This document shows positions 5,701 through 51,131 of a stretch of 64,000 nt of DNA, in pieces (the first letter of the stretch is position 1; every line of letters begins with the position of its first letter). The notes under the pieces were generated by a model that saw only the letters and a program-made list of their open reading frames with translations, searched no databases and was not told the DNA's origin. Source of the DNA: a candidate division WWE3 bacterium. Its GTDB lineage: Bacteria; Patescibacteriota; WWE3; UBA101185; UBA10185. The stretch is taken from NCBI GenBank assembly GCA_012798115.1, contig JAAZNV010000009.1:10156-74155 (forward strand), given 5' to 3'. The position numbers and the translations under genes were made by a program.

Positions 5701-6362
5701 CATACACTCCAGAGGTTGAAGATGTGGCAGAGGCTGAATCAGTAAGTGCAGTTAGAAGCTTTTCTATAGGAGATGCAATGTCGGATGTTCAAGGGTGTGA
5801 AGGGTATGACGTAGGAATATTGCCAGCTAGAGACCCCAATGCTAATAGAGTAGCCCAAAGAGCTTACGACATAGCATCTGGACTAGAAAGAGGTTTCTGG
5901 TGTGATTTTAACCAAAGCCATGACTACCCGCAGTTATGGGATAGTGGGTGGTGGGCACAGTATGGGGCATGGGGGTTAGATGTTGAAAAAGCTAGCACGG
6001 AAGGCGCTTATAAGCTATTTTGGTGTACATGGTTAGTCATAAAATCATATCAAGAAACCACAGATGAAAACTTTCCTGTTGCTACATACGTTCCAAATAT
6101 GAAAAAGTTCTTTGAAGAAAATACAGCAAAAGGATATTCGTATACACCTAGAGATGCAATAACAATAGATGAGATTCAGTCAGGAGATGTATTGTTCTTT
6201 AAAGGCCACGTGGCAATAATATACTCAAAGACATCTGATAGTGTTACTACTGTTGAGTCTAACAATATAAAACTCTCAGTTCCAATAACAACTGCTGAAG
6301 ATGGCCACCTGCCAGGAAGTCTTGGCAGATTAGAAATTATCGGTATTGGTCATAAAAGATAA
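2769..6362 (+). CDS. Giant (1197 aa) protein: large Lys-rich coiled-coil cytoplasmic region, two central TM segments, C-terminal extracytoplasmic CHAP/NlpC-P60-like cysteine peptidase (peptidoglycan hydrolase) domain
   Basis: No signal peptide. N-terminal repeat NPLYPGY x2. Hydrophobic segments VAKLIGAVAGSTGIFAVLGPII and FALGCSLIFAPFFAAIISIVLLLGSILGG. C-terminus has Cys (FWCTW/GFWCDF) and a GDVLFFKGHVAIIYS His motif typical of CHAP/NlpC-P60 amidases. Confidence 0.6.
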   Translation: MANNPLYPGYQPGKKNDENINPLYPGYYAGQPLQRRPSPKNYLRPIEYEGDKIAQALDETEQGVLKTMNVPKWIIERVADDWKSKYKISIKPPDIETTELDDYATEDFPGAVTTLNVDPGSWKKDAKKEAVKTIKSWVKESTGFDTDNPLKTDFSDIENKVNHELWIRALGYGKPDTWLEEKTSMGVAKRVAAPFPNLSENLQKGENPLNVRDVAVWYVDDNGNKVVKKDIYHNTAAAAAEFAEQSSNPKVRDKLHSQFIANAISATNTEIQAKFRNPGIKDRSFLDKYEGDVKLFDIKTQTIDDIRNLQEKTLKGTTKEIKKSILKGAKRDSYASTWEELEIALNKASNNQKTRMKNAETLLSQGKISKEAFDKLQKSVNDYNSFLDNALDKVTGAKDGKLSPTIVLHSLTGVGEKSLVEENLFTKSIVGKLQKDAEYSMISTKPGEIGRMLRDDNLKAQGMSFSAEKISAVAYRLRREKIGQQTTEFLEAVNDPKKALERYAWNRVTSRMSPRLAAFTTGEYIENRLKKRNYFGLKVDESGIPSTLSGSKRAVRKFERFERKYGYKVDIKLEKKYFGVGKLTVRGGDQFKILNNKLLKGLDSEIDKEFLLHTLGDGKVTADMLSKKFFGKTFKDLTGGEKKEIAAFARESRAYREWVNSLSDKFGDKTKQGLFGYELFKRVKGKNDELPNGYSLTRKYAGRLEKVHKKMLEAKAKFEKSAIGKLIKIASNWREMAAEKIAELVSKLVAKLIGAVAGSTGIFAVLGPIIEKAVNFVVKEVVKRVTDFFSAVVKGDIDKAFEVLEEAAKKFALGCSLIFAPFFAAIISIVLLLGSILGGSESPIDRTADSTLIKSQTEFVSGENAVVKITKGATVKVLGTGETITNPNHFENSVLRSGLQVTYKVHVTPKITLPNGSVFFIDEVLARNEMDSWSVKNYGTTMVNPFIAGNTITYDLTPPIIIKGDKFKDSVVANTATAYTPEVEDVAEAESVSAVRSFSIGDAMSDVQGCEGYDVGILPARDPNANRVAQRAYDIASGLERGFWCDFNQSHDYPQLWDSGWWAQYGAWGLDVEKASTEGAYKLFWCTWLVIKSYQETTDENFPVATYVPNMKKFFEENTAKGYSYTPRDAITIDEIQSGDVLFFKGHVAIIYSKTSDSVTTVESNNIKLSVPITTAEDGHLPGSLGRLEIIGIGHKR

Positions 6363-6388
6363 GATGATGGTATTATAGAAATATATTT

Positions 6389-6841
6389 ATGCGAATATTT
6401 AAGGAAAACAAGATAATACTCATAGCCTTAGTTTTACTAGTAACTGTCCTCTTGCTTTTTACCCTTAAGAAAGATACTAAGAACACAGATTTAAGTAGTT
6501 ATAAGAAAACTACTAGCGAACAAAAAAAAGGACAAGCAGCAACTGACACAAGTACAGAGAACAGTCTTCCAAATGATTACGAACATGCAGAAGCTATAAA
6601 AGAACTTCTCAAAGAATATCCGTGGTACTCAAAATTACCAATAGACAATAATGAATATACAATAGTATGGGATCTTGATATAGAGAAATTTAGAATACGA
6701 TTAAAGATACCTGAAACAAGTCCTCAAGAATCAAAGGATTCTTTGATTGCAAAAGCAGTAGAAGATATAAAAACACTAACTGGAGAAGATTTTCAAAAGT
6801 ACACCTATTACGTACTATACCCAAGGACAACACAAGATTAA
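6389..6841 (+). CDS. Small N-terminally membrane-anchored protein, unknown function
   Basis: N-terminal TM (IILIALVLLVTVLLLFTL) followed by a charged domain. Immediately downstream of the CHAP protein. Confidence 0.45.
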   Translation: MRIFKENKIILIALVLLVTVLLLFTLKKDTKNTDLSSYKKTTSEQKKGQAATDTSTENSLPNDYEHAEAIKELLKEYPWYSKLPIDNNEYTIVWDLDIEKFRIRLKIPETSPQESKDSLIAKAVEDIKTLTGEDFQKYTYYVLYPRTTQD

Positions 6842-6848
6842 TACAGAG

Positions 6849-7307
6849 TTAATAAGGGGAGTCAGGAACATCTAACAAATCATTTAATGCACCAAAAATA
6901 TTGCCTAAGACAGACGATGGTGACGTTATGCTGGTTATTCCAAATATTTTAGCAACTATTATAAATATTGAAAAAAACAAAACTATCACAAAAAAACCAT
7001 AAACTGCGTATGTCCATGTCTGTTGAGCACCTTCAAGTCCCCTAGGATCCCCTGTAGCCAAAGAAGCTTTAATAACCCCGTAAGCTATTAAAGCAACTAG
7101 TACACCACCAGAAGCATAAACAAGCGTATTAAATATTCTTCCAATTATGCCGTTTATCTGATCAAGAGATGGATTGTTATCCAAATCTGCAGCAAATACC
7201 TTTAAGATAAACAATTCAGCTGTAAATAAAAATATCATTAAGCTAGGAAGTAAGGAAGATACTTTTCCATGTATAACAATTGGGCTTAATTTTTTGTCTT
7301 TTTTCAT
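6849..7307 (-). CDS. VirB2/TrbC-like pilin-type small membrane protein, paralog 1 of 4; start refined to internal Met
   Basis: The listed ORF 6849..7400 overlaps the upstream gene by 88 bp. An internal ATG at 7305-7307 gives MKKDKKLSP...VFA|AD with a long signal-peptide-like N-terminus. Two hydrophobic helices flank TGDPRGLEGAQQTWTYAVYG, the motif shared by the three neighbours. Confidence 0.5.
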   Translation of the reverse strand: MKKDKKLSPIVIHGKVSSLLPSLMIFLFTAELFILKVFAADLDNNPSLDQINGIIGRIFNTLVYASGGVLVALIAYGVIKASLATGDPRGLEGAQQTWTYAVYGFFVIVLFFSIFIIVAKIFGITSITSPSSVLGNIFGALNDLLDVPDSPY

Positions 7308-7312
7308 ATCTG

Positions 7313-7618
7313 TTATATACCATTTGCTCCAATTAACTTCACAAGAATATCCTTTAATGCAAATGCAATCAAGACGACCACAAGACCTATGACAGACCAT
7401 GTAGCAGAACTTTGAGCTTTTTTTAAGAGCTTTTCATCTCCACGGCTCATAGCAAACTGTACGAAAGCAAACGCTAAAGTAACTACAGTTATACCCACAG
7501 CTATGATAATGGCAACATTAGCAGCCAATATTACCATAGACTGAGCGTTGCCAAACCTACTTGCAGCCTTATCACCAGATGCAAAGCTTCTTACAGCTGT
7601 TTCTAATGGTTCAAACAT
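7313..7618 (-). CDS. VirB2/TrbC-like pilin-type small membrane protein, paralog 2 of 4
   Basis: 101 aa with two TM helices flanking SRGDEKLLKKAQSSATWSVIG. Gap to the downstream gene is 5 nt. Confidence 0.5.
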   Translation of the reverse strand: MFEPLETAVRSFASGDKAASRFGNAQSMVILAANVAIIIAVGITVVTLAFAFVQFAMSRGDEKLLKKAQSSATWSVIGLVVVLIAFALKDILVKLIGANGI

Positions 7619-7644
7619 GTCATTAACCTATTAAATAAATAAAG

Positions 7645-7986
7645 CTAGTCGTTACCACCCAACAGATCGTCTTTTTGCCCCACAAGATTAAGTATTACAC
7701 CCTTAATAGCATAGACAAGGAACAAACCAACTCCGCCAATAACTGCATAAGTAACCCATTTCTGTGCTTGTTCCGTTGCAACCTTATCACCTTGTGATGT
7801 AATAAATCTAATAAATCCCATTGCAAGGAATACCACTACTAATGCTAGTCCAAGAATTATGACTAAGTTTGTGATCCACACAAAAACACTATTCAAATCA
7901 GTAAGTCTACCTCCTAAAGGATTGATAGGCTCTGTAGGAATATCAGTTGACGCAGCAAACACTTTTGTAACAAGTAAATCAAACAT
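7645..7986 (-). CDS. VirB2/TrbC-like pilin-type small membrane protein, paralog 3 of 4
   Basis: 113 aa with two TM helices flanking SQGDKVATEQAQKWVTYAVIG. Confidence 0.5.
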   Translation of the reverse strand: MFDLLVTKVFAASTDIPTEPINPLGGRLTDLNSVFVWITNLVIILGLALVVVFLAMGFIRFITSQGDKVATEQAQKWVTYAVIGGVGLFLVYAIKGVILNLVGQKDDLLGGND

Positions 7987-8017
7987 TTTATTACACCTCC
8001 TTAAATTTAATTAAACC

Positions 8018-8815
8018 TTAAATACTAATATTTCCTCCAATAAGTGAGTTGATTATAACTCTCAATATTGCAGCTGACAACAAAACAAAAATTATACCAA
8101 TAATAGCAGCAGTAAGTTGTCCTTGAGCATCTTGTGTTTTTTTAGGATCTCCTTCACTAGTCATTAGCATATAACCAGATATAACAACATAGCAAAAGCC
8201 AATAAAAAGTGCACCATAATATAATATCCTTGCAACAGGTGATATTAATTCTTGCCAGTTGGTGATCTTTGGACCTTTATATGAATCATTCAGAGATGGA
8301 CCACAAGTATTTATATTACATGTCATACCTGTACAACAATCAGATGGCTTTTCACATGGTTCTCCATATTTAGCACAAAAGAGATCTACAATTTCCTTTT
8401 TACAGCAAACTTCATTACTACCACAATTTCCTATAGCAATCTCCTTACACTTACCAGTTGGAACACATTTATGGGTACATTCTGTAATTAAAGCCCAACA
8501 TTTATCTGCTGTGTTACTACAAGAATAGCTAACCTGTTTGTAAAGGCTACCTGGGCTAGTGGGTGAACAGGTATAGCCTTTATCTGTACACTCATTTCCT
8601 GTTGGCTTCACCTTGCAACAAACGTTATTCATAGAACACGCACCTAAAAGGATGTGCGTAGTAGGGCAAGTAACAGCACTATAACATGTTCCACCTTCAT
8701 CTTTACACTCCTGCGGAGTTGTTACTGATGCACCATAAGACTTAGTTGAGGACAGAAAAATTATGAACCCTAAGAGAAATGAAAATGTAAGACACTTTGA
8801 AAATCTAGTTTTCAT
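8018..8815 (-). CDS. Secreted cysteine-rich (knottin/defensin-like repeat) domain fused to a C-terminal VirB2/TrbC-like pilin module (paralog 4 of 4)
   Basis: Signal peptide MKTRFSKCLTFSFLLGFIIFLSSTKSYG|A. About 170 aa with more than 20 Cys arranged in repeated C..C..CC blocks. The C-terminus (two TM helices flanking SEGDPKKTQDAQGQLTAAIIG) is paralogous to the three preceding genes. Confidence 0.5.
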   Translation of the reverse strand: MKTRFSKCLTFSFLLGFIIFLSSTKSYGASVTTPQECKDEGGTCYSAVTCPTTHILLGACSMNNVCCKVKPTGNECTDKGYTCSPTSPGSLYKQVSYSCSNTADKCWALITECTHKCVPTGKCKEIAIGNCGSNEVCCKKEIVDLFCAKYGEPCEKPSDCCTGMTCNINTCGPSLNDSYKGPKITNWQELISPVARILYYGALFIGFCYVVISGYMLMTSEGDPKKTQDAQGQLTAAIIGIIFVLLSAAILRVIINSLIGGNISI

Positions 8816-8880
8816 AATTAAATATTAACATAATAAAATTAGAGAAATATACATATATTTAACTGATATAATCTTCATAT

Positions 8881-10674
8881 ATGATCTCTTGCCCACATAA
8901 AAAAAGTATAAGGAAGGGTATAACCTTCATAACAATACTTTTATTTGTAATTCCTATGTTACTTTCCCTTAAGATTCAAAACACGTATGCAGAAGATAAG
9001 TGTAAAAACATATCGGACAAGGATGATCAAACAGAATGTTATGAAAATCTAGAAAAGGAAACACAAGCTAAGTTAAGTAGTACAAAATCTAAATTAGATA
9101 ACACATTAAATTCAATCAATCAACTATCTTCTCAACTAAATGTAACACAAGCACAACTCAACGATGTCCAATCAGATATAAACGATATAAAAGAAGAACT
9201 AGATCAAATAAATTCTGTATTAGAAGACAGAAATAATAAATTATCGGAAAAGATAACATTCAGAAACAACTTACTTAGAAACTACTCTAAGAAGAATGTG
9301 GTAAACGACTTGGAACTATTCTTTTCTAGCAACAAGGAAACAAACTTGAGTGGTTTTCAAACAGCTACTTTTATATATGCATTTAACAAAGCAACTAGTG
9401 GGAATATTTTAAAAATAATAGGAGCATTAAACTCTGAAATTAGAAACTATGAAAAAAACAAAGAAGAATCAGAAGAAATTAAGAAAGACCTAGAAATTGC
9501 ACAAAACAACTTAATATCTTTAAAGAAGGATTTAGATGCAAGAAAAGCTAATGCACAAAGCGAAGCAAATAAACTAGAAGAACAAAAAACAGAATACGAA
9601 GAAAAGCTAGAAGAGCTTCAAAGTAAAATATTAAGCTTAAAATATGGTGATGAAAGTGGTTCCGTTGGGGATTATGAGTCACCTTCATCCAAAACACCAT
9701 CCCCTCCGTTTGACAATGCATTTGCAGCATTTTCTTATGGAGCATATACCCATTACAACGGCATGAGCCAATATGGGGCAAAAGGCAGGGCTGAAGATGA
9801 AAAAAGCTATAAAGATATTATTAAGTTTTATTATGGTGAAAGTGTAAAAGAAAAAGATGACTTTCCAGAAAAAATATGTGTTGAAGGTTACGGAAATATG
9901 AGTTTTCAAAAATATCTTTACGGTATAGCTGAAATGCCAAGCTCTTGGGATGAAGATGCTCTAAAAGCTCAAGCAGTAGCTGCTAGATCTTATGCATACA
10001 AAAGAACCAAAGGTGGGGGGTGCATATGCACTACCCAAAGCTGTCAGGTCTTTTCAAAAAGCAAGTCTGACAACCCACCAGGAAGTTGGAAAAAAGCTGT
10101 CGATAACACTGAGAATGAAATAATAGGGGGAGATACAGGAAAATCAGGGTATGGCTGGTATTCATCAACAACGGGAGGATATCTTAACCAAGCAGGGTGG
10201 GACTTAGATGGAAAGTGGCCTGGACAAGCCTACGAAAAAAAAGCAGGATCACCATGGTTCTATAAAGCATGGTATACAAAAAGTTATAGTGATTCATCAA
10301 CATGTGGTCATTCACATCCATGGCTTACAGAAGAAGAAATGGCTGACATTATTAACTCATGGGTGGTTTATACAAAAGGATCTTCAAGTGAGAAAAGTCA
10401 TATTACCCCAAGAACAGAAAGTTGTTGGGGAGGTGATCCTTACTCTCTTGATGAAATGGCATCAAAAGCAGATAAATATGGGGATAAATATACAAACGTA
10501 TCAAAAGTTTGGGTTGATATAAGCAATTCTGGATATACATCAAAAGTTCACTTCCAGACAAATAATGGAGAAGTATCTATTGATGGAGCAACATTCAAGA
10601 CAGTCTTTAACTTAAGAGCTCCTGGATACGTTGCAATAAGAAGCAGACTCTACGATCTTGAATTAAGAGACTAA
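8881..10674 (+). CDS. Membrane-anchored coiled-coil protein with C-terminal SpoIID/LytB-like peptidoglycan-remodelling domain
   Basis: N-terminal TM/signal, then a long Q/N/E/K-rich heptad-like region. The C-terminal domain has AQAVAARSYAY and CICTTQSCQVF, resembling the SpoIID/LytB signature (AQAVAART..., TTxCQVY). Confidence 0.55.
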   Translation: MISCPHKKSIRKGITFITILLFVIPMLLSLKIQNTYAEDKCKNISDKDDQTECYENLEKETQAKLSSTKSKLDNTLNSINQLSSQLNVTQAQLNDVQSDINDIKEELDQINSVLEDRNNKLSEKITFRNNLLRNYSKKNVVNDLELFFSSNKETNLSGFQTATFIYAFNKATSGNILKIIGALNSEIRNYEKNKEESEEIKKDLEIAQNNLISLKKDLDARKANAQSEANKLEEQKTEYEEKLEELQSKILSLKYGDESGSVGDYESPSSKTPSPPFDNAFAAFSYGAYTHYNGMSQYGAKGRAEDEKSYKDIIKFYYGESVKEKDDFPEKICVEGYGNMSFQKYLYGIAEMPSSWDEDALKAQAVAARSYAYKRTKGGGCICTTQSCQVFSKSKSDNPPGSWKKAVDNTENEIIGGDTGKSGYGWYSSTTGGYLNQAGWDLDGKWPGQAYEKKAGSPWFYKAWYTKSYSDSSTCGHSHPWLTEEEMADIINSWVVYTKGSSSEKSHITPRTESCWGGDPYSLDEMASKADKYGDKYTNVSKVWVDISNSGYTSKVHFQTNNGEVSIDGATFKTVFNLRAPGYVAIRSRLYDLELRD

Positions 10675-10730
10675 CACAACTAGAGCCTAACTAACTATTT
10701 GGTTATTTAGTTGATGGTATAATAACCTCA

Positions 10731-11294
10731 ATGAGTACATCAACTTTACTTAAATCATTCATCAAAAACCCACCAAATACTTCCTATCAAGGAAGAGATA
10801 ACGATGAACGCATAATACTTGTTATTAGGAAAAGTTTAGTTGCTGTTTACAAATGGGTACTTATGTTCATTTTGCTCTTAATCATTCCAATATTTTTAAT
10901 GCCTTGGTTAGCAAGTTTGCAATACAACAACTACTTCATATTCACTGCTGGATTCATTCGCTGCTTAACTGCCTTTTGGTACTTATTCTCTATTGGTTTT
11001 ACTTTTCAAAACTTCTTGAATTGGTATTTTGAAGTGCTTTTAGTTACAAATAAGAAAGTTGTAGATATAGACAACTCTTGTACCAATATTTCAGAAGCCA
11101 CCTTAAACAACATTCAAGATGTAACATCAAAAATAAGCAAAGGATGGGAACAAATATTAAATATTGGGTCGATATATATTCAAACAGCCGCAGAAAGAGA
11201 AGAGTTTGAGTTTGATACTATAGATAATCCTTCATTTGTCAGGGATGCTATAGCAGATTTAATTTCAAAACATAAAGGACACCATGGACATTAG
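10731..11294 (+). CDS. Membrane protein with two TM helices and bacterial PH (bPH_2/YdbS-like) domain (tentative)
   Basis: Two adjacent hydrophobic helices followed by a ~100-aa soluble domain with a His-rich tail (HKGHHGH). Confidence 0.35.
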   Translation: MSTSTLLKSFIKNPPNTSYQGRDNDERIILVIRKSLVAVYKWVLMFILLLIIPIFLMPWLASLQYNNYFIFTAGFIRCLTAFWYLFSIGFTFQNFLNWYFEVLLVTNKKVVDIDNSCTNISEATLNNIQDVTSKISKGWEQILNIGSIYIQTAAEREEFEFDTIDNPSFVRDAIADLISKHKGHHGH

Positions 11295-11526
11295 TAATTA
11301 TTCTATACAACAAATAATAAAAGTTGGTTCTGGAACCATTGAAATCTTCGTATTTTTAATGATGGTTCTTTACTTATTCTTTGCATTCATCTTAATTAGG
11401 AAACTAAGGATAATGAATTTAAATCTTAAAACCCCTTACAACAAGTTATTCTTGCTCCTAGCAAGGGTACACTTTGTGGCTTCCTTTATTGTTATTATTC
11501 TTACGTTTATAACCATAAGAAGGTAG
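11284..11526 (+). CDS. Small two-TM membrane protein
   Basis: 80 aa with two hydrophobic segments. Overlaps the upstream gene by 11 nt. Confidence 0.3.
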   Translation: MDISNYSIQQIIKVGSGTIEIFVFLMMVLYLFFAFILIRKLRIMNLNLKTPYNKLFLLLARVHFVASFIVIILTFITIRR

Positions 11527-11527
11527 A

Positions 11528-13375
11528 ATGATTAAAAAACTAACTGCAAAAACCCAAGAACTAAATCCAAAATTACCTCAATACAGTAATTCATTTTCAA
11601 AATGCGTAATCATCAAACCAGAGACACAAGAGTTGCTATTAAAAAAAGGCACTGTATACAGTGTGTTTGATGTATCAGGAGAATCTAATTTTGATACAGA
11701 GCTAGTAATTAAAGTGATAAATGATGTCATAAATAACCTCTACTTCCAATCAGAGAGTATATCTCCAATACAATCAATGGAAAAAGCTATTGTAGAAACC
11801 AAAGAAAAAGTTCTTCAACTATCCAACGATACATTAACTTCCAACCCGCAGAGCATTAACTTAAACATGATAACTGCAGTTTTATGGGGAAGCGTCTTGT
11901 ACATAATAAAATTTGGAGGTGCTAAAGGATATCTAATGAAAAACGGGGAAATATCCCCCTTAGAGATGATATCGGAAGGAAACTTCTCTACTGCTTCAAA
12001 GGTTGTTGATGAAGACGAAGTACTAATATTAGCTACAGAACATTTTGAGAGATCATTTCCCCCAGAAAGACTCTTAGCAACAAGCATTGGTGAAGGAGAC
12101 TTAGATCCCAATCAAGCATGTCTTCTCATGAGACTGATCATAGATACTACATTTTCAGATAATGAAGTGGTTGACTTTGGTTTGGGTGATGCAGTTTCAA
12201 AGAATAAAAACAGGGTAAGAGTAGAAAAACTTACAAGTATTATCGAAGATGCTTCAAGATGGATATTAAAATCTATTAAAAAAGTATGTGGAGTATTTGT
12301 TGCATTAGGAAAACTTTTAGCGGATGCTATTTCAAAAGTACTCCCGAGAAGGAAAGCTGTACTCTTAACAAGAAGTATAAGTCAATTATCAGGAAAAGGT
12401 GGAACAAAAACAAAAAGCTGGTTGCCTTTAAGCTTAATGTCAATATCTCTTGCTTTTCTGGTGTTTTTTATCTTAAGATCTACTGTACTTAAAAGCACCA
12501 ACAAGGAAAATATGGAAAGAAAAAATACAGGACAACAAACAGTTGAAACCAGTACAAAAGAAGTTGTAAATACAGAAACTGAAGACAAGTCAAAAGATGA
12601 GCAATATAAAATTAAACGAGTATCTCCGGAAGTATTTTATGACTTGAAAATTACGGATCAATCAGTAGAACCAAGTGAAATTGAAATAGTTGGAGACAAA
12701 GTTGTTATTGTAGATAAAATTACTGGGAAAATATATGTATCAGATATCTCAACTCCAAACTTTAAGCTTGGGGTAAATACGTTCCCTGGCATTAAATCAC
12801 TAGCATCTTCAGAAGACCTGTTGTCCTTTAATGATAATGAAGGCTACAAGACCTACAGTATTAAAAACTCTACCGTAATAAGCTCATATAAAGTAGAAGG
12901 TTTATCACTAACATTCCCATATGCAGGTTTTATATACTCAGTATCTTCAGATATTTTATCCAAGAATACAGAAAAAGATGGGAAACTAGATGGAGTAGTT
13001 TGGGCCCAAAGCCCAGATTTTGTAGATGCTAAGTCGATGTCAATTGCATACAGCATTTATATATTGAAGAAAGATGGAAACCTTGTTAATTATTCAGGCG
13101 GGTCTAAAACTAGCTTTGCCATTAACGGCCTTGAAAAACCTCTCTCCGATCCTTCAAAGGTTAGCACGAATATTGATTTTGAATACATTTACATAGCAGA
13201 TAAAGGAAATGAAGCTATAGTGGTTATTGATAACAAAGGAAATGTAGTAAAACAGTACAAGTATGAGGATAGTAGTACATGGAGTGATATTAAGAGCATT
13301 GCTATATCTTCGGATGAAAAGACCATCTTTGTTTTAAACTCAAGCAAAATATATAAACTAAATATAGAAAACTAA
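11528..13375 (+). CDS. Bitopic protein: N-terminal degenerate PP2C/SpoIIE-like phosphatase-like domain, one TM, C-terminal extracytoplasmic beta-propeller-like domain (tentative)
   Basis: The N-terminal region (VFDVSGES...ITAVLWGSVLYIIKFGGAKGYLMKNGE...DEDEVLILATEHF) follows the PP2C block pattern. TM is WLPLSLMSISLAFLVFFIL. C-terminal repeats resemble propeller blades (IYVSD, IYIADKGNEAIVVIDNKGNVV). Confidence 0.3.
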   Translation: MIKKLTAKTQELNPKLPQYSNSFSKCVIIKPETQELLLKKGTVYSVFDVSGESNFDTELVIKVINDVINNLYFQSESISPIQSMEKAIVETKEKVLQLSNDTLTSNPQSINLNMITAVLWGSVLYIIKFGGAKGYLMKNGEISPLEMISEGNFSTASKVVDEDEVLILATEHFERSFPPERLLATSIGEGDLDPNQACLLMRLIIDTTFSDNEVVDFGLGDAVSKNKNRVRVEKLTSIIEDASRWILKSIKKVCGVFVALGKLLADAISKVLPRRKAVLLTRSISQLSGKGGTKTKSWLPLSLMSISLAFLVFFILRSTVLKSTNKENMERKNTGQQTVETSTKEVVNTETEDKSKDEQYKIKRVSPEVFYDLKITDQSVEPSEIEIVGDKVVIVDKITGKIYVSDISTPNFKLGVNTFPGIKSLASSEDLLSFNDNEGYKTYSIKNSTVISSYKVEGLSLTFPYAGFIYSVSSDILSKNTEKDGKLDGVVWAQSPDFVDAKSMSIAYSIYILKKDGNLVNYSGGSKTSFAINGLEKPLSDPSKVSTNIDFEYIYIADKGNEAIVVIDNKGNVVKQYKYEDSSTWSDIKSIAISSDEKTIFVLNSSKIYKLNIEN

Positions 13376-44068: not shown

Positions 44069-44734
44069 TTAGTTATAAGTCCTAATTATATCTGCAAAAG
44101 TTTTAGGATCAAGACTTGCATTTCCAACTAAAACTCCATTCAAGTTAGTTATTTTGGCTATATGCTCAATATTATTTTCATTCACAGACCCCCCATATAT
44201 TAGTGGGGTATTGCTTGAGATTATCTTTCTAATCTCATTAACTATAAGCACTATCTTGCTTGGATCCTCTGCATTATAAACACCATTTTTTGATATATTA
44301 ACAGGATTTTCCCATGCCATTATTACACCTTCTTTGTGTAGCCTTACTAAATCTTCTGGGTTGGTAAAACAAATGATAGGAGTTATCTTTTCTTTCAAGC
44401 ATATGTCTCTTTTTGCTACTACTACGTTTACTTCTTCTTTTCTTTCACTATGTCCTATAATTGCATATTTGCAGAACTCCTTAACTTGAAATGCACCTGT
44501 TTCTCCAGTGTTTGCACCTTTTTCTTTTAAGGATATATCTTGTGCAGCTACCTTTAACATACTCTTCTTTGAGAGTTCATAAATTACTGGGATAAAAGGA
44601 AAGGATGGTGCAATTATTATTTCATTCTCCGGAGATAAGAATTTAAGAAATCCAGAGAAGCCATCAACCCAAGATATGGTATCTTCAAACCCCATGTTTT
44701 CTTTCCAATTTGCAACTATGTATTTATTTATCAT
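44069..44734 (-). CDS. tpiA: Triosephosphate isomerase
   Basis: ...NTGETGAFQVKEFCKYAIIGHSERK...; TIM active-site His/Glu context. Confidence 0.85.
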   Translation of the reverse strand: MINKYIVANWKENMGFEDTISWVDGFSGFLKFLSPENEIIIAPSFPFIPVIYELSKKSMLKVAAQDISLKEKGANTGETGAFQVKEFCKYAIIGHSERKEEVNVVVAKRDICLKEKITPIICFTNPEDLVRLHKEGVIMAWENPVNISKNGVYNAEDPSKIVLIVNEIRKIISSNTPLIYGGSVNENNIEHIAKITNLNGVLVGNASLDPKTFADIIRTYN

Positions 44735-44735
44735 C

Positions 44736-45581
44736 TTAAGATATCCTTCTAATAGTTTCTTCTATCAACTTTGGCAGGTTCTCTATATCTTCATGTGTAT
44801 AACTGTATCCTAATGTATTTAAACACGAAAAAACTACTCCTATGTCCGTATATATTTTATCCGCAAATTGGCAAGCAACAAGACTGTTAATCAAGACGTT
44901 TCCACCAATTTCCCCGATTTTTGATTTGCCACAACCCATTGGACAGTTTGAACATGATGGGTATATTCCCATATCTACACGAAGTTCGTCCTTCTTGGAA
45001 AGAATCTCGTTATATAGCTTTTCATATTCATCAAAGTTTAATGGTTTGTCAATTTCCGTTCCTGTAATAACTACTCCTTTGATGTTTTTTTCGGTAAATA
45101 TTTTTTCAAGAAAGCTTTCTGGGGTAGTGAAGTAATCATCAAGAAGTATCTTATTGTTCTCAAAGTTTATAGCACTTCTTTTCCCAGGAAGTCCTAGTGA
45201 GTCTGTACTTGTTTCTTCTCCAAGGAAGTCTACTTTAGCATTACATATGTCTAGTACAGTTGGTTGATCTGACCTCCCAAATATTGCTATAGCATCTACT
45301 CCTGCAAACCTCATTCTTAACGATAAGCTTCCACCTATGTATATGTCTTCTATTACACCACCATCATTTAAAACTACTGCAGTCTTTGACGCAAAGGGAA
45401 AAAAGCCATTTAGTGGCCCAATAGCAAGCACGACAGGGTTTAAGTCTGAGTACATCTCGTGAAGTTTTATTCCAAGAGCAACACCACCTAGGTATTTGTT
45501 AAGATCTGCAAAGCTTTTTAAATCAGCTTCCTTCTTATTTAAGTCTATTGTTAGTACCTTTTTAGCTAAAAAATCTATCAT
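44736..45581 (-). CDS. Truncated aldehyde:ferredoxin oxidoreductase (AOR)-family protein: AOR N-terminal domain plus Cys cluster, lacking most of the tungstopterin-binding domains
   Basis: LTIDLNKKEADLKSFADLNKYLGGVALGIKL, VVLAIGPLNG and MRFAGVDAIAIFGRSDQPTVLDI align with the AOR_N blocks. YPSCSNCPMGCGK resembles the AOR [4Fe-4S]-ligand region. 281 aa against ~600 aa for AOR/GAPOR. Confidence 0.5.
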   Translation of the reverse strand: MIDFLAKKVLTIDLNKKEADLKSFADLNKYLGGVALGIKLHEMYSDLNPVVLAIGPLNGFFPFASKTAVVLNDGGVIEDIYIGGSLSLRMRFAGVDAIAIFGRSDQPTVLDICNAKVDFLGEETSTDSLGLPGKRSAINFENNKILLDDYFTTPESFLEKIFTEKNIKGVVITGTEIDKPLNFDEYEKLYNEILSKKDELRVDMGIYPSCSNCPMGCGKSKIGEIGGNVLINSLVACQFADKIYTDIGVVFSCLNTLGYSYTHEDIENLPKLIEETIRRIS

Positions 45582-45853
45582 TCTTCGTTTTTTCCTTCTA
45601 TTTCTTCGTGGTTTTCTACCTCAAACACATCTTTAGGACATATCTTTGATATTTTTTCTACATGAAGCATGTTTATTCTAGGATCTATCTCTATTTGCAT
45701 TTCTAACTTTTGGTTATCATCTCTTTTCTTTTTGAATATTCTGATTAAAGCTTCTTCAAGCCCCACCTTTTTTAACTGTCTTTGTGATTCTAGCAAACAC
45801 AATTCACATCCGTTGCATTTATCTGTTTGTGTTGGTTTTAATATCTTAGCCAT
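45578..45853 (-). CDS. Small ferredoxin-like protein (split CxxCxxC...CP 4Fe-4S motif)
   Basis: CNGCELC near the N-terminus and a distal KICPKD motif; 91 aa. Translationally coupled (4-nt overlap) to the AOR-like gene. Confidence 0.4.
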   Translation of the reverse strand: MAKILKPTQTDKCNGCELCLLESQRQLKKVGLEEALIRIFKKKRDDNQKLEMQIEIDPRINMLHVEKISKICPKDVFEVENHEEIEGKNEE

Positions 45854-45857
45854 ATCT

Positions 45858-46832
45858 TTATGATTCTAGGGCTTTTATTCCTGGCAAGGTATCCTCAGCA
45901 AGGTATTGAAGCATAGCACCTCCACCTGTGGATACAAAGCTAAACTTATTTAGTATTCCTAGTTTGTCTACTGCAGCGATAGTATCGCCGCCGCCTATGA
46001 CAGAAAATACACCTTTTTCTTGAGTCAGTTTAACAGTTTCATTAGCTATTTCCTTTGTACCTGTTATATATTCTTCTTTTTCATACATTCCAAGAGGTCC
46101 TGCCCAAAGTATTGTTTTTGCACTGTTAATTATTTGTTTAAATTTTTCTATTGTTTTTGTATCTATATCTTTAGATTCTACACTACTGTTATCTGATAAA
46201 ACTAAGTTCTGAGGTATTTCTTTACTCCAATTTGCAGAAAGTATTGAGTTTAAAAGTACGTAATCTGCTTTTTGGATAAATTTATCTATCACCGGGAGTT
46301 TACTCTCAAGTTTTATACCGCCAATTATTACAATTAATGGCTTGTCTGGGTTTGTAGTTACTTTGTTTAGTGTTTCAATCTCCTTTTGAAATCTAAATCC
46401 TACGTAAGAAGGTAAATACCTTGTTATTCCAACAATAGAAGTATGTTCTCTATGTGATGTTGCAAAGCTTTCATTTACATATATATCTGCCTTTGAAGCA
46501 AGTTCTTTTGCGAAGTTAGTGTCATTTTGTTCTTCTCTTGAGTCGAATCTTAAGTTCTCCAGTATTTCATATCTACTTTCTCCTATTTTTTCATTAAAGT
46601 ATGGAATTAAATGCTTAGTGCTTAACTCTTCTTTGAATACGCCTTCTGGCTTTCCAATGTGGCCTGCAATTAAAGGAATTCCACCTTTTTCTATGATGAA
46701 TTTAAGTGTAGGAAGAAGGTTATCTAGTCTGTATGTTTCTCTAATAACATTATTTTCTATTGGTACATCAATATCACATCTTACAAATACCTTTGTTCCT
46801 TGTTTGATAGGAGCATCAATTAAAGACTGCAT
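45858..46832 (-). CDS. pgk: Phosphoglycerate kinase (compact)
   Basis: Hinge and ATP-binding blocks (...GGGDTIAAVDKLG..., GGGAML). 324 aa. Confidence 0.9.
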   Translation of the reverse strand: MQSLIDAPIKQGTKVFVRCDIDVPIENNVIRETYRLDNLLPTLKFIIEKGGIPLIAGHIGKPEGVFKEELSTKHLIPYFNEKIGESRYEILENLRFDSREEQNDTNFAKELASKADIYVNESFATSHREHTSIVGITRYLPSYVGFRFQKEIETLNKVTTNPDKPLIVIIGGIKLESKLPVIDKFIQKADYVLLNSILSANWSKEIPQNLVLSDNSSVESKDIDTKTIEKFKQIINSAKTILWAGPLGMYEKEEYITGTKEIANETVKLTQEKGVFSVIGGGDTIAAVDKLGILNKFSFVSTGGGAMLQYLAEDTLPGIKALES

Positions 46833-46916
46833 GAAGATATTCTAGCATTTATTGGTTTGACTTTATAAATTCTTAATAGTATAACCAAGAAAAATATTAG
46901 AAAGGGAGATGTTGTC

Positions 46917-47570
46917 ATGAGTAAGAAGACGGGTAATGCTGTCCAAGACGACAAGCTAACGAACGAGGAGCTTGGTGCTTTATATCGCAGGGTTTTGGAA
47001 ATTAGTCGCCGCTTGAACGACGGAACTATTAAGTATACTTCTGTGATGGGGGGTCTTCAGGAAATTATTGAGGGTCAAGGGGCAGAGGATCGGTCAGTCT
47101 GGAACTGGAAGACTATTGAGATCGGAACTTACAAGGATATGGAGTCCCTGCGCAAAGCTCTGGAAGAAGCAGGTGCTGCTATTAGGGGTCAGGCAAGTGA
47201 TGTTCTCAACAGGGTATATTTAAGTAAATCCAAACAGTCCTTGGATCTGGTGGTTTTGTCCGTCAAAGAGCTGGGATTTTCTCAAAGAGCCCAACTAGAA
47301 AGCATCCACAAAATCGGTGACGTACAGGGTTTGGGCAAGCCTCCAGCTGAAGCAGCTCCGCAGTACCTATTGGAGCACGGTAATAACCTAAAACCTGGAG
47401 AGGTTCTAATCTTTGCAATGGAACCTATTATAGACTCCTTTTGCGATCTGCGCCTGTTCTTCGTCAAGCGCTTTGGCGATGTTCTTAGTCTCGGCGCGTT
47501 CCGCGTTCGCCCTGATGACTTCTGGGATGTTGACGATCGCTTCGTGTTCGTTCGTGTTCGTTGCAAGTAG
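46917..47570 (+). CDS. Compositionally foreign (GC-rich, ~48% GC) gene of unknown function inserted between gap and pgk on the opposite strand
   Basis: GC content is visibly higher than the flanks (~33%). The 3' end contains a GTTCGT hexamer repeat; no motif recognised. Followed by a hairpin terminator. The 47282..47629 minus-strand ORF is an Arg-rich mirror artefact. Confidence 0.45.
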   Translation: MSKKTGNAVQDDKLTNEELGALYRRVLEISRRLNDGTIKYTSVMGGLQEIIEGQGAEDRSVWNWKTIEIGTYKDMESLRKALEEAGAAIRGQASDVLNRVYLSKSKQSLDLVVLSVKELGFSQRAQLESIHKIGDVQGLGKPPAEAAPQYLLEHGNNLKPGEVLIFAMEPIIDSFCDLRLFFVKRFGDVLSLGAFRVRPDDFWDVDDRFVFVRVRCK

Positions 47571-47578
47571 GTTCTTTG

Positions 47579-47620
47579 AACTCCGTGTTTTTGGATTTTT
47601 CTATACCAAAGCACGGAGTT
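47579..47620 (+). terminator. Hairpin terminator after the GC-rich gene, abutting the gap stop codon
   Basis: AACTCCGTG...CACGGAGTT (9-bp outer stem with an inner TTTGG/CCAAA pairing) followed by TTTTATT. Confidence 0.5.
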
Positions 47621-47621
47621 T

Positions 47622-48698
47622 TTATTCACTCATCATTATTGCCATATCAACAAGTCTATTACTGTATCCCCATTCATTGTCATACCAAGCAAATATCTTA
47701 ACTAAATTCTTATCTATAACCTTAGTCATAGACAAATCTACTACTGCAGAGTAGGGGTTTCCAATAATATCTGAAGATACAATAGGTTCATAAGTAACTT
47801 GGATAACATCCTTGTAAATTGAATTTTTAGAAGCTTCTTCAAATGCTTTATTTACTTCATCTTCAGTAACATTCTTTTCAACCAAAGCTGTAATATCAGA
47901 TAAAGACCCTGTAACAATTGGAACTCTAAGAGATACACCATCAAATTTTCCCTTAAGATTTGGCAATGCTTCTGTTGTTGCGTCTGCAGCACCAGTAGTT
48001 GTAGGTATTATATTGTAACCAGATGACCTAGCCCTTCTTAAATCTACCTTTTCTCCAGATGGTGGAGTATCCACAACACTCTGATTATTTGTTATTGCAT
48101 GAATAGTACTCATTCCAGCTTTAATAATCTTGAAATTCTTGTCAAGAATAGCTAGCACTGGAGAAATACAGTTCGTTGTACAAGAAGCATTTGAGATAGC
48201 ATTTTGACCTAAATACTGTGAATCATTAACCCCTTTCATAAATGTTTGAATAGTTCCACCTTTTGTTGGAGCAGACACTATTACTTTCTTAGCTCCTGCC
48301 TTTATATGTTCCAATGCACTGTCATCTTTAGTAAATCTTCCTGTGCATTCCAAAACAATATCAATATTTAGCTTTTTCCATGGTAATTTGCTTGGTTCTT
48401 TTTCTGAAGTTACTAAAGTTCTTTTTCCGTCTACAATAAGATAATTTTCATTTCCCTTAATATCAAAAAACTCCTTTTCTCCCTTATTGTCTTCCAGTCT
48501 TGTCTTTTTACCATCTTCTTCTATGTATATTTCCTTGTTGTAAACTCCATAAACCGTGTCATATTTTAAAAGGTGAGCTAAGACTCGAGGATTAGTTAAA
48601 TCATTGATAGCAGCAATGCTTAATCCTTTTTCAAGAGCAATCTTGAAAGAAGATCTCCCTATTCTTCCAAATCCATTTATTGCAAGCTGGGCAGTCAT
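47622..48698 (-). CDS. gap: Glyceraldehyde-3-phosphate dehydrogenase (type I)
   Basis: INGFGRIGR N-terminus and the active-site context ASCTTNC. Confidence 0.9.
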   Translation of the reverse strand: MTAQLAINGFGRIGRSSFKIALEKGLSIAAINDLTNPRVLAHLLKYDTVYGVYNKEIYIEEDGKKTRLEDNKGEKEFFDIKGNENYLIVDGKRTLVTSEKEPSKLPWKKLNIDIVLECTGRFTKDDSALEHIKAGAKKVIVSAPTKGGTIQTFMKGVNDSQYLGQNAISNASCTTNCISPVLAILDKNFKIIKAGMSTIHAITNNQSVVDTPPSGEKVDLRRARSSGYNIIPTTTGAADATTEALPNLKGKFDGVSLRVPIVTGSLSDITALVEKNVTEDEVNKAFEEASKNSIYKDVIQVTYEPIVSSDIIGNPYSAVVDLSMTKVIDKNLVKIFAWYDNEWGYSNRLVDMAIMMSE

Positions 48699-49066: not shown

Positions 49067-50080
49067 ATGAAAAATATTTCAAGAAGAAAATATACTCTTT
49101 TTCTATTGATTTTAATGCTTCTTATAACCGTCTTTATTTTTGGGGAAGGACTTTTTAAGAAAGTATTTAAAGATGAGTTTCTTGTTAAAGAAGATTTAAC
49201 AGAAAAAAATTATTATTCTACGCTTTTAATCAACACATTAAGTGATTCCGGAAGCTCACCTGATTTTAGTATCCTCCAGTCTAATTGGAATCCTGGAGAA
49301 GAGTATGGTACGTCCAATCAGCCTGAGATATCAGGAGAAAGTGGCATAGTTGTAGACATAAATTCTGGGAGGATTCTTTATGAGAAAAATTCTACACAAA
49401 GGTTAAAAATTGCAAGTTTAACTAAAATTATGACTGCTGTAGTTGCTTTAGAACATAAGAATATTAATGATGAGATTGTTGTTTCCTTAAAAGCTTCATC
49501 TATTGGAGAAAATGTTATGGGTATATCAGAAAGTGAAGTATACACACTAGAAGAACTTCTTTATGGGCTGATTTTAAATTCTGGAAATGATGCTGCATAT
49601 GCAATTGCAGAAGGAGTTGCTGGGAACTCCGACACATTTGTTAAGTGGATGAATATGAAAGCAAAGGAATTGAATTTAAATGATACGTATTTTACTGACC
49701 CTTGTGGTTTAAACGATGAAACTTATTCCACTTCAGTAGATTTAGTTAAGTTATCTAGGTATGCAATGCAAAAAGAAGAGTTTAGGAAGATAGTAAGTAC
49801 GGTTAGTATGGAGCTTCCTTATTCTGAAAAACATAAATATATTTATTTGGAAAACCAAACTAATCTTTTAACTACATATCCTGGAGTTGCAGGAATAAAA
49901 ACAGGGTATACAGAAGAAGCAGGGTATTGTTTAGTTTCTTATACAAAGAATAATAACATTGAGCTAATTGGAGCAGTCTTAAATAGTGAAAATAGGAAGT
50001 TTGATATGATTTTTATGCTCGATCACAGTTATTCCACATTGGGAGTTGTAATCGAGCATCCTTTACTTCAATTTTATTAA
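49067..50080 (+). CDS. D-alanyl-D-alanine carboxypeptidase (serine-type, PBP5/6-like)
   Basis: N-terminal TM, SxxK motif (ASLTK), SGN motif (LNSGND) and a KTG motif (IKTGYT). Confidence 0.8.
   Translation: MKNISRRKYTLFLLILMLLITVFIFGEGLFKKVFKDEFLVKEDLTEKNYYSTLLINTLSDSGSSPDFSILQSNWNPGEEYGTSNQPEISGESGIVVDINSGRILYEKNSTQRLKIASLTKIMTAVVALEHKNINDEIVVSLKASSIGENVMGISESEVYTLEELLYGLILNSGNDAAYAIAEGVAGNSDTFVKWMNMKAKELNLNDTYFTDPCGLNDETYSTSVDLVKLSRYAMQKEEFRKIVSTVSMELPYSEKHKYIYLENQTNLLTTYPGVAGIKTGYTEEAGYCLVSYTKNNNIELIGAVLNSENRKFDMIFMLDHSYSTLGVVIEHPLLQFY
49995..50079 (+). repeat. 85-bp perfect direct repeat, copy 1 (3' end of the carboxypeptidase gene)
   Basis: GGAAGTTTGATATGATTTTTATGCTCGATCACAGTTATTCCACATTGGGAGTTGTAATCGAGCATCCTTTACTTCAATTTTATTA, identical to 50615-50699. 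Confidence 0.85.
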
Positions 50081-50081
50081 T

Positions 50082-50588
50082 TCAATCGGTGGCTTTAACA
50101 ATAACAATTCCTTTGGCCTCACCTACTTGCGTATAAAGACCTGAGGACAGCTTTTCTCCAGTCGGTATTGTTATTGGGCCCATTCTAAAACTATCGCGTT
50201 GAGGAAAATAAATCTTTTGTATTCTTGGTTCGTACCCCTTAAGTTTATACAGAATGTATCCCATAAGTGTGTTTTTTACGTAGTTTATGAAATGTTTGTT
50301 TTCACGTAGAACGCAAGCTGATGCCAACTCGTCATCGGTTCTTGTTCCTTTTTTTGGTTTCACATATAAAACAAAACTTACACTAGCAAACCATTCCAGG
50401 GCAGAACTAGGATGCTTCTCTTTCCAAATTGCCATACGACTAAGATCTGTGTCAAGAGAATAAATTACCCATTCTATACCGCTGCTTGGTGCCTTAAAGC
50501 ACTTGTCGTAATAATCCATTTGTCGCTCCTTTTCTAGTCTTTTCCTTTTGATTTTCTGGATTGTAGCAGTAAAGAGTTTTGTATTCAA
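50082..50588 (-). CDS. Hypothetical protein encoded between the two direct-repeat copies (cargo of a small insertion)
   Basis: 168-aa ORF in a slightly more GC-rich 535-bp segment bounded by the 85-bp repeats. No motif recognised. Confidence 0.4.
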   Translation of the reverse strand: MNTKLFTATIQKIKRKRLEKERQMDYYDKCFKAPSSGIEWVIYSLDTDLSRMAIWKEKHPSSALEWFASVSFVLYVKPKKGTRTDDELASACVLRENKHFINYVKNTLMGYILYKLKGYEPRIQKIYFPQRDSFRMGPITIPTGEKLSSGLYTQVGEAKGIVIVKATD

Positions 50589-50614
50589 CTCTGCAAGTCT
50601 TGGTTATTTAAGTG

Positions 50615-50699
50615 GGAAGTTTGATATGATTTTTATGCTCGATCACAGTTATTCCACATTGGGAGTTGTAATCGAGCATCCTTTACTTCAATTTTATTA
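50615..50699 (+). repeat. 85-bp perfect direct repeat, copy 2 (non-coding duplicate of the carboxypeptidase 3' end)
   Basis: Identical to 49995-50079. The next base differs (G vs A), turning the TAA stop context into TAG. Confidence 0.85.
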
Positions 50700-51131
50700 G
50701 TTGTTTACCTGTGTTGGTATTGATCGCATTACAGAAGCTACACCTCTTAACACATAACATTCTGAGTTAGACATGTAAGTGTCTCTTCTGGTTTTTGCAA
50801 GTACCCTGTCATAAACTCTTATTTCAACCCCTTCTTTTTTAAGCAATACTCTAGCTCTTGGAGCAACTTTCCTTGATACTGTAGATAACAGGTTGTTGGT
50901 GTATTTCCTGGATTCATAGTCTACCCCATTTAATATCTCTTGAAGATCAAGTTTCTTGTCTTTTGGCTTCGACCTTAAAATTGCTTGGAATGATACCTGT
51001 GCTATCTTGACGTGCCCATCTAATTTCTTTGCATAGGGATACTTGTATACTACTTTTGGAAACCATACTAAAAAGACCGTTACTGATTTTTGGTGTATAA
51101 ATACCGTAAATTCTGTGCCTTCTCCTCCCAT
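50697..51131 (-). CDS. Hypothetical basic protein abutting repeat copy 2
   Basis: 144 aa, K/R-rich, no motif recognised. Its 3' end overlaps the end of repeat copy 2. Confidence 0.35.
   Translation of the reverse strand: MGGEGTEFTVFIHQKSVTVFLVWFPKVVYKYPYAKKLDGHVKIAQVSFQAILRSKPKDKKLDLQEILNGVDYESRKYTNNLLSTVSRKVAPRARVLLKKEGVEIRVYDRVLAKTRRDTYMSNSECYVLRGVASVMRSIPTQVNN

Follow-up and report, generated by a model that had tools for sequence, protein, structure and literature searches.

Within the window, by which the whole 64-kb stretch of DNA analysed here is meant, an open reading frame on the plus strand separates the gap and pgk genes, both of which lie on the minus strand (Table 1). These two neighbours could be identified because genes in the same order in the related loci L003 and L086 match Pfam. 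The 217-aa product of the ORF has the same sequence as NMB91761.1 (GYA37_02850), which carries the label "candidate division WWE3 bacterium". The first-pass annotation had drawn attention to the antiparallel orientation of this ORF and to its GC content of about 48% as compared to about 33% in the flanking genes, and both observations were reproduced, with recalculated GC values of 0.482 for the ORF, 0.330 for pgk, 0.337 for gap and 0.338 for the mean of the window; a uniform GC, named there as a possible refutation, was not found. Using sliding windows of 654 nt (sd 0.027), the island was recovered with the ORF approximately 5 sd above the mean and as the strongest GC outlier in the 64 kb, the runner-up away from the locus reaching 0.408. 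GC3 amounts to 0.50 in the ORF versus 0.21 in gap and pgk. The glycolytic cluster itself (44069-46832) is unusual in that the pgk product comprises only 324 aa, and that a 91-aa Cys-rich ORF (45578-45853) and a 281-aa protein, matching only the N-terminal domain of aldehyde:ferredoxin oxidoreductase (PF02730), are located between pgk and tpi; this arrangement is present also in L003 and L086.

Table 1. Features at the gap/pgk locus, in coordinates of the window
Feature	Position	Strand	Remarks
pgk	45858-46832	-	Pfam matches of identically arranged genes in L003 and L086
Promoter-like site, TTGACT - 17 nt - TATAAC	46857..46885	+	Read from sequence; kept in L003
Ribosome-binding site, AGGGAGA	46903..46909	+	7 nt 5' of ATG
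ORF, homologue of DGR variable proteins	46917..47570	+	217 aa; protein identical to NMB91761.1
N-terminal domain, two helices, residues 1-55	46917..47081	+	Common to L003, L001 and the DGR target of L007
C-type-lectin-like domain scaffold, residues 64-172	47106..47432	+	
Variable repeat (VR) region	47433..47566	+	Homologous to VRs of relatives with cognate TR
GTTCGT GTTCGT, in-frame 6-nt duplication in conserved VR 3' end	47550..47561	+	
GGTTCTTTGAAC, last surviving unit of the CTTNG-repeat region	47571..47582	+	
Hairpin and T run, intrinsic-terminator-like	47580..47623	+	Cassette part in L001, L003, L006, L008, L009, L010 and L083
gap	47622-48698	-	Pfam matches of identically arranged genes in L003 and L086

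The ORF is accompanied by candidate signals of its own. The promoter-like site had been missed by a consensus scan, since its second hexamer ends in C, and it falls outside the portion shared with L001. Homology of the window with L001 and L007 starts at about 46897. At the other end of the gene, a hairpin at 47580-47619 folds at -21.1 kcal/mol (z = -5.4, with 0 of 200 shuffles as good), and its T run at 47619-47623 overlaps the gap stop codon at 47622-47624, in agreement with the earlier description of a terminator reaching that codon. The GTTCGT hexamer noted at the end of the ORF is indeed present twice, although what had been taken for a repeat is really the conserved end of the VR, RFVFVRRK, carrying a 6-nt duplication: the ORF ends in CGC TTC GTG TTC GTT CGT GTT CGT TGC AAG TAG (...RFVFVRVRCK), while the family sequence, lacking the duplication, is CGC TTC GTG TTC GTT CGT CGC AAG TAG.

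The view that the protein has no recognisable motif had to be abandoned, since some of its homologues can be shown to be variable proteins of diversity-generating retroelements (DGRs). Searches of Pfam, PHROGs and NCBIfam with the window protein and 68 homologues gave nothing usable, the best PHROG match (E = 0.006) being to a family of unknown function. Homologues, all of about 200 aa, annotated as hypothetical and free of Pfam matches, number 21 by sequence search and at least 463 clusters by profile search, and a scan of one genome per species identified 239 loci encoding relatives, nearly all in Patescibacteria. A scan of viral contigs with the family profile yielded no relative, and there is hence no sign of a phage origin. 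Members outside Patescibacteria were observed in L071 and L077 (Bradyrhizobium), L035 (Syntrophorhabdaceae) and L064 (Bryobacterales). The Bradyrhizobium copies show no template repeat (TR) or reverse transcriptase (RT) in the examined flanks, and these two cultured genomes are possible experimental entry points. Family genes are richer in GC than the flanking host DNA in 94% of cases (n=84), the mean excess being 11 points for the core and 17 for the VR. Because this excess is a family-wide trait, the high GC of the window gene says little about how recently it was inserted.

In the family alignment, an almost invariant centre, SKSKQSLDLVVLSVKELGF, is followed by a C-terminal stretch of approximately 45 residues with scattered hypervariable columns. 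Eleven such columns in the VR contain 93% residues of the NNC/NNT type, as compared to 63% in variable columns elsewhere, and it was this pattern that pointed to DGRs. The AF2 model of the window protein (pLDDT 90) suggests a CLec-like fold preceded by an N-terminal helical hairpin. [quoted passage not shown] No evident hydrophobic segment or signal peptide is present (maximum KD19 1.38). Two observations on family members stand apart. The family profile at A3 positions ~50-90 (window residues ~66-100) matches artificial alphaRep/HEAT-like PDB proteins with E = 3e-12, and the model places the same stretch in the lectin-like domain. Further, P0016 (250 aa, on a 27.4-kb contig) continues past ...RFVFVRR into QSSHFSPSFY..., a peptide of the 3' flank of the L009 TR, and looks as if the end of its gene had been replaced by the TR and its flank.

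Related loci confirm that members of this family are targeted by DGRs. In 33-35 loci, the terminal ~135 nt of the gene, which correspond to the VR, are present a second time 350-500 nt downstream as TR, with a VR/TR identity of 80-93% and with 90-100% of the mismatches located at A of the downstream copy, and an RT then follows. In L007, a 217-aa target with an N-terminal domain like that in the window is followed by the TR, a minus-strand Avd and the RT, and L009 has the same order; similarity of the window protein to the L007 target is 43% over the full length, and residues 33-213 compare with the L009 target at 47%. The Avd ORFs of relatives match NF033474, 'DGR protein Avd', and their RTs carry LGNLxSQ, which fits [LIV]GxxxSQ, a motif typical of DGR RTs. 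About half of the family genes in the examined loci are solitary. Where the MAG of a solitary copy also contains a DGR, the mismatches between the VR of the copy and the TR of that DGR were adenine-specific in 18 of 23 cases at best and in about 50% of cases in the others. Because the mismatches are only partly adenine-specific, solitary copies are not generally perfect remote targets of the co-resident DGR.

The window gene belongs to the solitary copies. TR, Avd and RT are all absent from a stretch of 72 kb, consisting of the 64-kb window and the 8 kb past its right end: the VR is not repeated anywhere in this stretch, and tblastn of the window with the RT and Avd sequences of relatives gave a best E of 0.39. 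Its VR nevertheless carries the signature expected from mutagenesis. Adenine makes up 9.1% of the window VR, as compared to 29% of the remaining gene, 26% of TRs and 14% of VRs that have a TR next to them. When the window is compared with L003, dN/dS amounts to 1.3 for the VR, 0.45 for the lectin-like core and 0.51 for the N-terminal domain. The low A content together with the elevated VR dN/dS is the mark left on the VR by adenine mutagenesis. At the same time, it departs from the TRs and scaffold of its clade at non-adenine positions (G4C, C13R, G17V, W19S and G25V), and scaffold residues that are invariant in the family have been replaced (C142P, W to S in RWL, and G to V/C in the VR). The conserved VR end, the 17-mer CGCTTCGTGTTCGTTCG, is retained. 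In a metagenome scan with this 17-mer, the matches listed were mostly due to chance, and the window lineage was not among them.

The MAG with GYA37_ tags also contains, on a 37-kb contig, a paralogous target P0011 (GYA37_03190) and the RT P0158 (GYA37_03200), which is of the DGR type, together a complete-looking DGR of the clade of the window gene, known here from proteins alone. The clusters of P0158 and P0011 have one member on one contig each, and the window gene was observed on many contigs from four sources. This difference suggests that the P0011/P0158 DGR is strain-specific, mis-binned or poorly assembled.

Comparison of strains revealed that the window VR is static. Over 20.6 kb, the window and L086 are 99.43% identical and differ at four VR positions, all of them C/T changes and two of them synonymous at third positions, with none of the four at TR-adenine positions (using the L009 TR as the aligned TR); L210 is 99.57% identical to the window and has no VR difference. 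DGR activity as the source of the four differences was rejected on these grounds. The 90% cluster of the window protein comprises only three protein variants, with 10 contigs read for P0001, 5 for P0123 and 2 on record for the variant of the window itself. A positive control was provided by the solitary homologue found in L001 and L209, the two loci being 99.1% identical over 5.15 kb. Here, 20 of the 47 differences fall within 97 nt of the VR, and 16 of these 20 are at TR-adenine positions, where 24% would be expected from the A share of the TR. Between the corresponding proteins, P0003 and P0149, there are 13 residue differences, without exception inside the VR. The L001 homologue has no TR or RT within 6 kb, and thus solitary copies can be live remote targets, since its VR diversifies at TR-adenine positions. 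By the same comparison of sequences, the window copy does not look like a live remote target, and the stasis of its VR may well be permanent.

The region 3' of the VR also differs between the window and active loci. In the latter, a CTTNG-rich region of ~60-70 nt lies between the stop codon and the hairpin, which is a GC-rich stem-loop followed by a T run. Within 80 nt after the stop codon, active loci contain a median of 4 CTTNG motifs, the window 1, and the background a mean of 0.30 (background P(>=4) = 0.0005). The antisense mean is only 0.09, so that the array is strand-specific. A shuffle test, in which the motifs stayed in place and only the spacers were randomised, revealed a tendency of the spacers to pair into a long interrupted hairpin (mean z = -1.7, 45 loci, p = 2e-7), the pairing being individually significant in only about half of the 45 loci. 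No consensus structure was obtained when the post-stop regions were aligned with MAFFT and folded with RNAalifold, and a crude 'long hairpin' criterion was dropped, because it is satisfied by the terminator itself and hence does not discriminate. In the window, the array has been deleted save for the unit GGTTCTTTGAAC with retention of the stem-loop, and as a result the hairpin begins 9 nt past the stop codon. L003 exhibits a different, partial deletion of the CTTNG region, and its normal stop codon is gone. The distribution of motif counts among solitary copies of the family is bimodal, as 28 of 49 have three or more motifs and 17 of 49 have one or none.

Sequences just 3' of the VR are needed for retrohoming in the Bordetella phage BPP-1, where the Mtd site consists of the IMH and a GC-rich hairpin/cruciform with a GRNA loop located 4-34 bp past the VR (Guo et al. 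2011, PMC3240598). The present family resembles this arrangement in having a conserved stem-loop downstream of the VR, past the end of TR/VR homology, and some members, such as L020, L061 and L064, have BPP-1-like GC-rich stems of 8-9 bp with GAAA loops. Unlike in BPP-1, the GC-rich hairpin of the family is situated ~60-90 nt downstream, behind a strand-specific CTTNG array with spacers that tend to pair. By analogy with the BPP-1 requirement, deletion of the array is proposed as the uncoupling step, and its loss may have uncoupled the window copy from its DGR. It is possible, though doubtful, that CPR-clade DGRs recognise their targets via a CTTNG array pairing into an interrupted hairpin together with the GC-rich stem-loop, and that the independent deletions in the window and in L003 uncoupled both copies.

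The unit common to the window and L001, the closest full-length homologue, extends from ~20 nt 5' of the ATG to the end of the hairpin (~46897-47623). In L001, this RBS, ORF, 3' region and hairpin are found inside an rRNA operon, the order of which (4142-12608) is 16S, gene, tRNA, cofD, tRNA, 23S, 5S; the 23S match spans 3.86 kb as compared to a 2.9-kb model, and hence contains an insertion. Comparison of the gap-pgk spacer in relatives, which the first-pass annotation had called for, revealed that another species (L003/L005, GCA_049297375.1) has the gene at this very site. Since the syntenic flanks are only 80-90% identical, the insertion must be old, predating the split from the L003 species. 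Within the syntenic block, the ORF body is least conserved (62-69%), and the upstream region with the first ~165 nt is among the most conserved parts (93-97%), above the local flanks. No flanking repeats or mobility genes were found at the window gene. Thus, the foreign insertion suggested earlier retains the atypical composition and the occurrence of the cassette in unrelated contexts in its favour, but the GC excess is shared by the entire family and the event is not recent. Elsewhere in the window, the 3' end of a Peptidase_S11-like gene is present twice in the form of a 93-nt direct repeat (49990-50082 and 50610-50702, 97% identity), with a 168-aa minus-strand ORF (50082-50588) between the two copies. 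The ~530 nt between the repeats (~50080-50610) have no counterpart in the syntenic L003 region, and 49990-50702 looks like an insertion with a duplicated target.

Taken together, the window gene is probably a solitary former DGR target that is old and now frozen. In relatives, the RT with Avd copies the TR into cDNA, misreading adenines, and this cDNA then replaces the VR at the 3' end of the gene. The cassette comprising the RBS, the ORF, the 3' region and the hairpin would have entered between gap and pgk in an ancestor common with the L003 species, adenine mutagenesis would have formed the VR in the past, and the copy would now be uncoupled, with a VR fixed across strains, the CTTNG region deleted and a 6-nt duplication in the VR end. 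Its product would be a small, apparently cytoplasmic binding protein with a presumed ligand-binding role and a variable surface formed by the last ~45 residues; its specificity would now be fixed, and its expression is most likely driven by a promoter of its own. Against a frozen state count the intactness of the ORF with its hairpin and conserved VR end, and the clustering of the four window/L086 differences in the VR, where ~0.8 would be expected. The main rival, according to which the gene is an active remote target that is rewritten in trans rarely or whose variants are quickly purged, draws on this same intactness of the ORF, the VR 3' end and the hairpin, on the presence of P0158 and P0011 in the same MAG, and on the L001 lineage, in which a solitary homologue is clearly diversified with neither TR nor RT nearby. 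It also accords with the lower apparent activity of DGRs of the CPR clade, where purifying selection can hide activity (Roux et al. 2021, PMC8144416); strong selection of this kind could mask low-level DGR activity in consensus assemblies. This rival is nevertheless unlikely, because between strains that are 0.4-0.6% apart, the VR shows 0-4 differences, which are exclusively transitions and never at a TR-A site, the non-adenine changes in the VR would be reset by retrohoming, the CTTNG region is deleted, and the single-member clusters mean that the DGR was either unseen in the other assemblies of the species or mis-binned.

A frozen but functional gene has also to be distinguished from a decaying, pseudogene-like relic without remaining function, retained only for want of a deletion. 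Such decay would be in line with a raised core dN/dS (0.45 for window/L003 versus 0.22 for window/L001), the loss of family-invariant residues and the independent 3' rearrangements in both gap/pgk copies, including the lost stop codon in L003. It is quite improbable given that an undisrupted ORF is kept by the window lineage, by L003 and by every strain variant, that dN/dS is below 1 in the core and the N-terminus, that the AF2 model is confident, and that the promoter-like site, RBS and terminator are conserved, along with the upstream region and the start of the gene, between two species. The strong GC and GC3 excess would also be compatible with a foreign insertion of recent date, with a chimeric assembly or with a structured non-coding RNA. 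GC-rich islands of AT-rich genomes are often RNA genes. These explanations have hardly any likelihood. Junctions of the window type are also present in L086, L087, L088 and L210-L212, which derive from JGI, Logan, ENA and NCBI and are 99.4-100% identical to the window, and these independent assemblies exclude the chimerism against which the first-pass annotation had recommended a check. A recently acquired islet was rejected, in spite of the atypical composition, on account of the copy at the same site in L003, the lack of flanking mobility genes or repeats and the GC excess of the whole family. As for RNA, no Rfam family was detected at the gathering score in the whole window, and at E up to 10 the region 46600-47900 gave only chance-level matches, whereas conservation at the protein level, codon-position patterns and the pLDDT-90 model favour a coding gene.

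DGRs and small, domain-less targets in CPR bacteria are already documented (PMC8144416, PMC5758913), and targets of CPR-clade DGRs are typically without transmembrane or known domains (Roux et al. 2021, PMC8144416). In Patescibacteria/CPR, variable proteins ('DGR clade 2', PMC8144416; 'CPR set', with the unclassified VR classes UVR1-6, Wu et al. 2018, PMC5758913) are likewise small with the VR at the extreme C-terminus and, like the window protein, have no recognisable transmembrane segment and no Pfam domain. Homologues of the window gene agree with CPR DGR targets also in being flanked by TR, Avd and RT and in their adenine-specific TR/VR mismatches; the window copy, unlike these, lacks all three elements in its surroundings and has a VR that is static between strains. 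Its position away from an RT/TR cassette recalls remote targets such as the TvpA paralogues of Treponema denticola and those of Legionella (PMC5758913). In the survey of Wu et al. 2018 (PMC5758913), targets at a distance of more than 100 kb were restricted to DGRs not belonging to the CPR set. The homologue of the L001 lineage behaves exactly as a remote target. By definition, such targets differ from a TR of the same genome solely by A-to-N changes; the strain data for the window argue against current targeting. Possibly new are the 3' element punctuated by CTTNG motifs, the evidence from L001 that a CPR genome can harbour a remote target, and a natural drop-out target.

Hence, a GC island that interrupts an operon of core metabolism and had no explanation is now recognised as a DGR variable-protein gene left alone. 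Because surveys that start from the RT miss solitary copies, DGR catalogues under-count targets and cannot separate live remote targets from fossils, and a family of at least 463 clusters without a Pfam or NCBIfam model should be given its own name and profile. The contrast between the window, where the array is lost and the VR static, and L001, where the array is kept and the VR diversifies with no RT nearby, provides a testable hypothesis on the cis element needed by CPR DGRs and on how hypermutation is switched off. If recognition via the CTTNG array holds true, the L001 lineage would exemplify CPR DGRs acting on remote targets, undetected in earlier surveys, and the window would represent a case in which a protein that used to be hypervariable has been naturally 'frozen', its gene having become an ordinary part of the chromosome.
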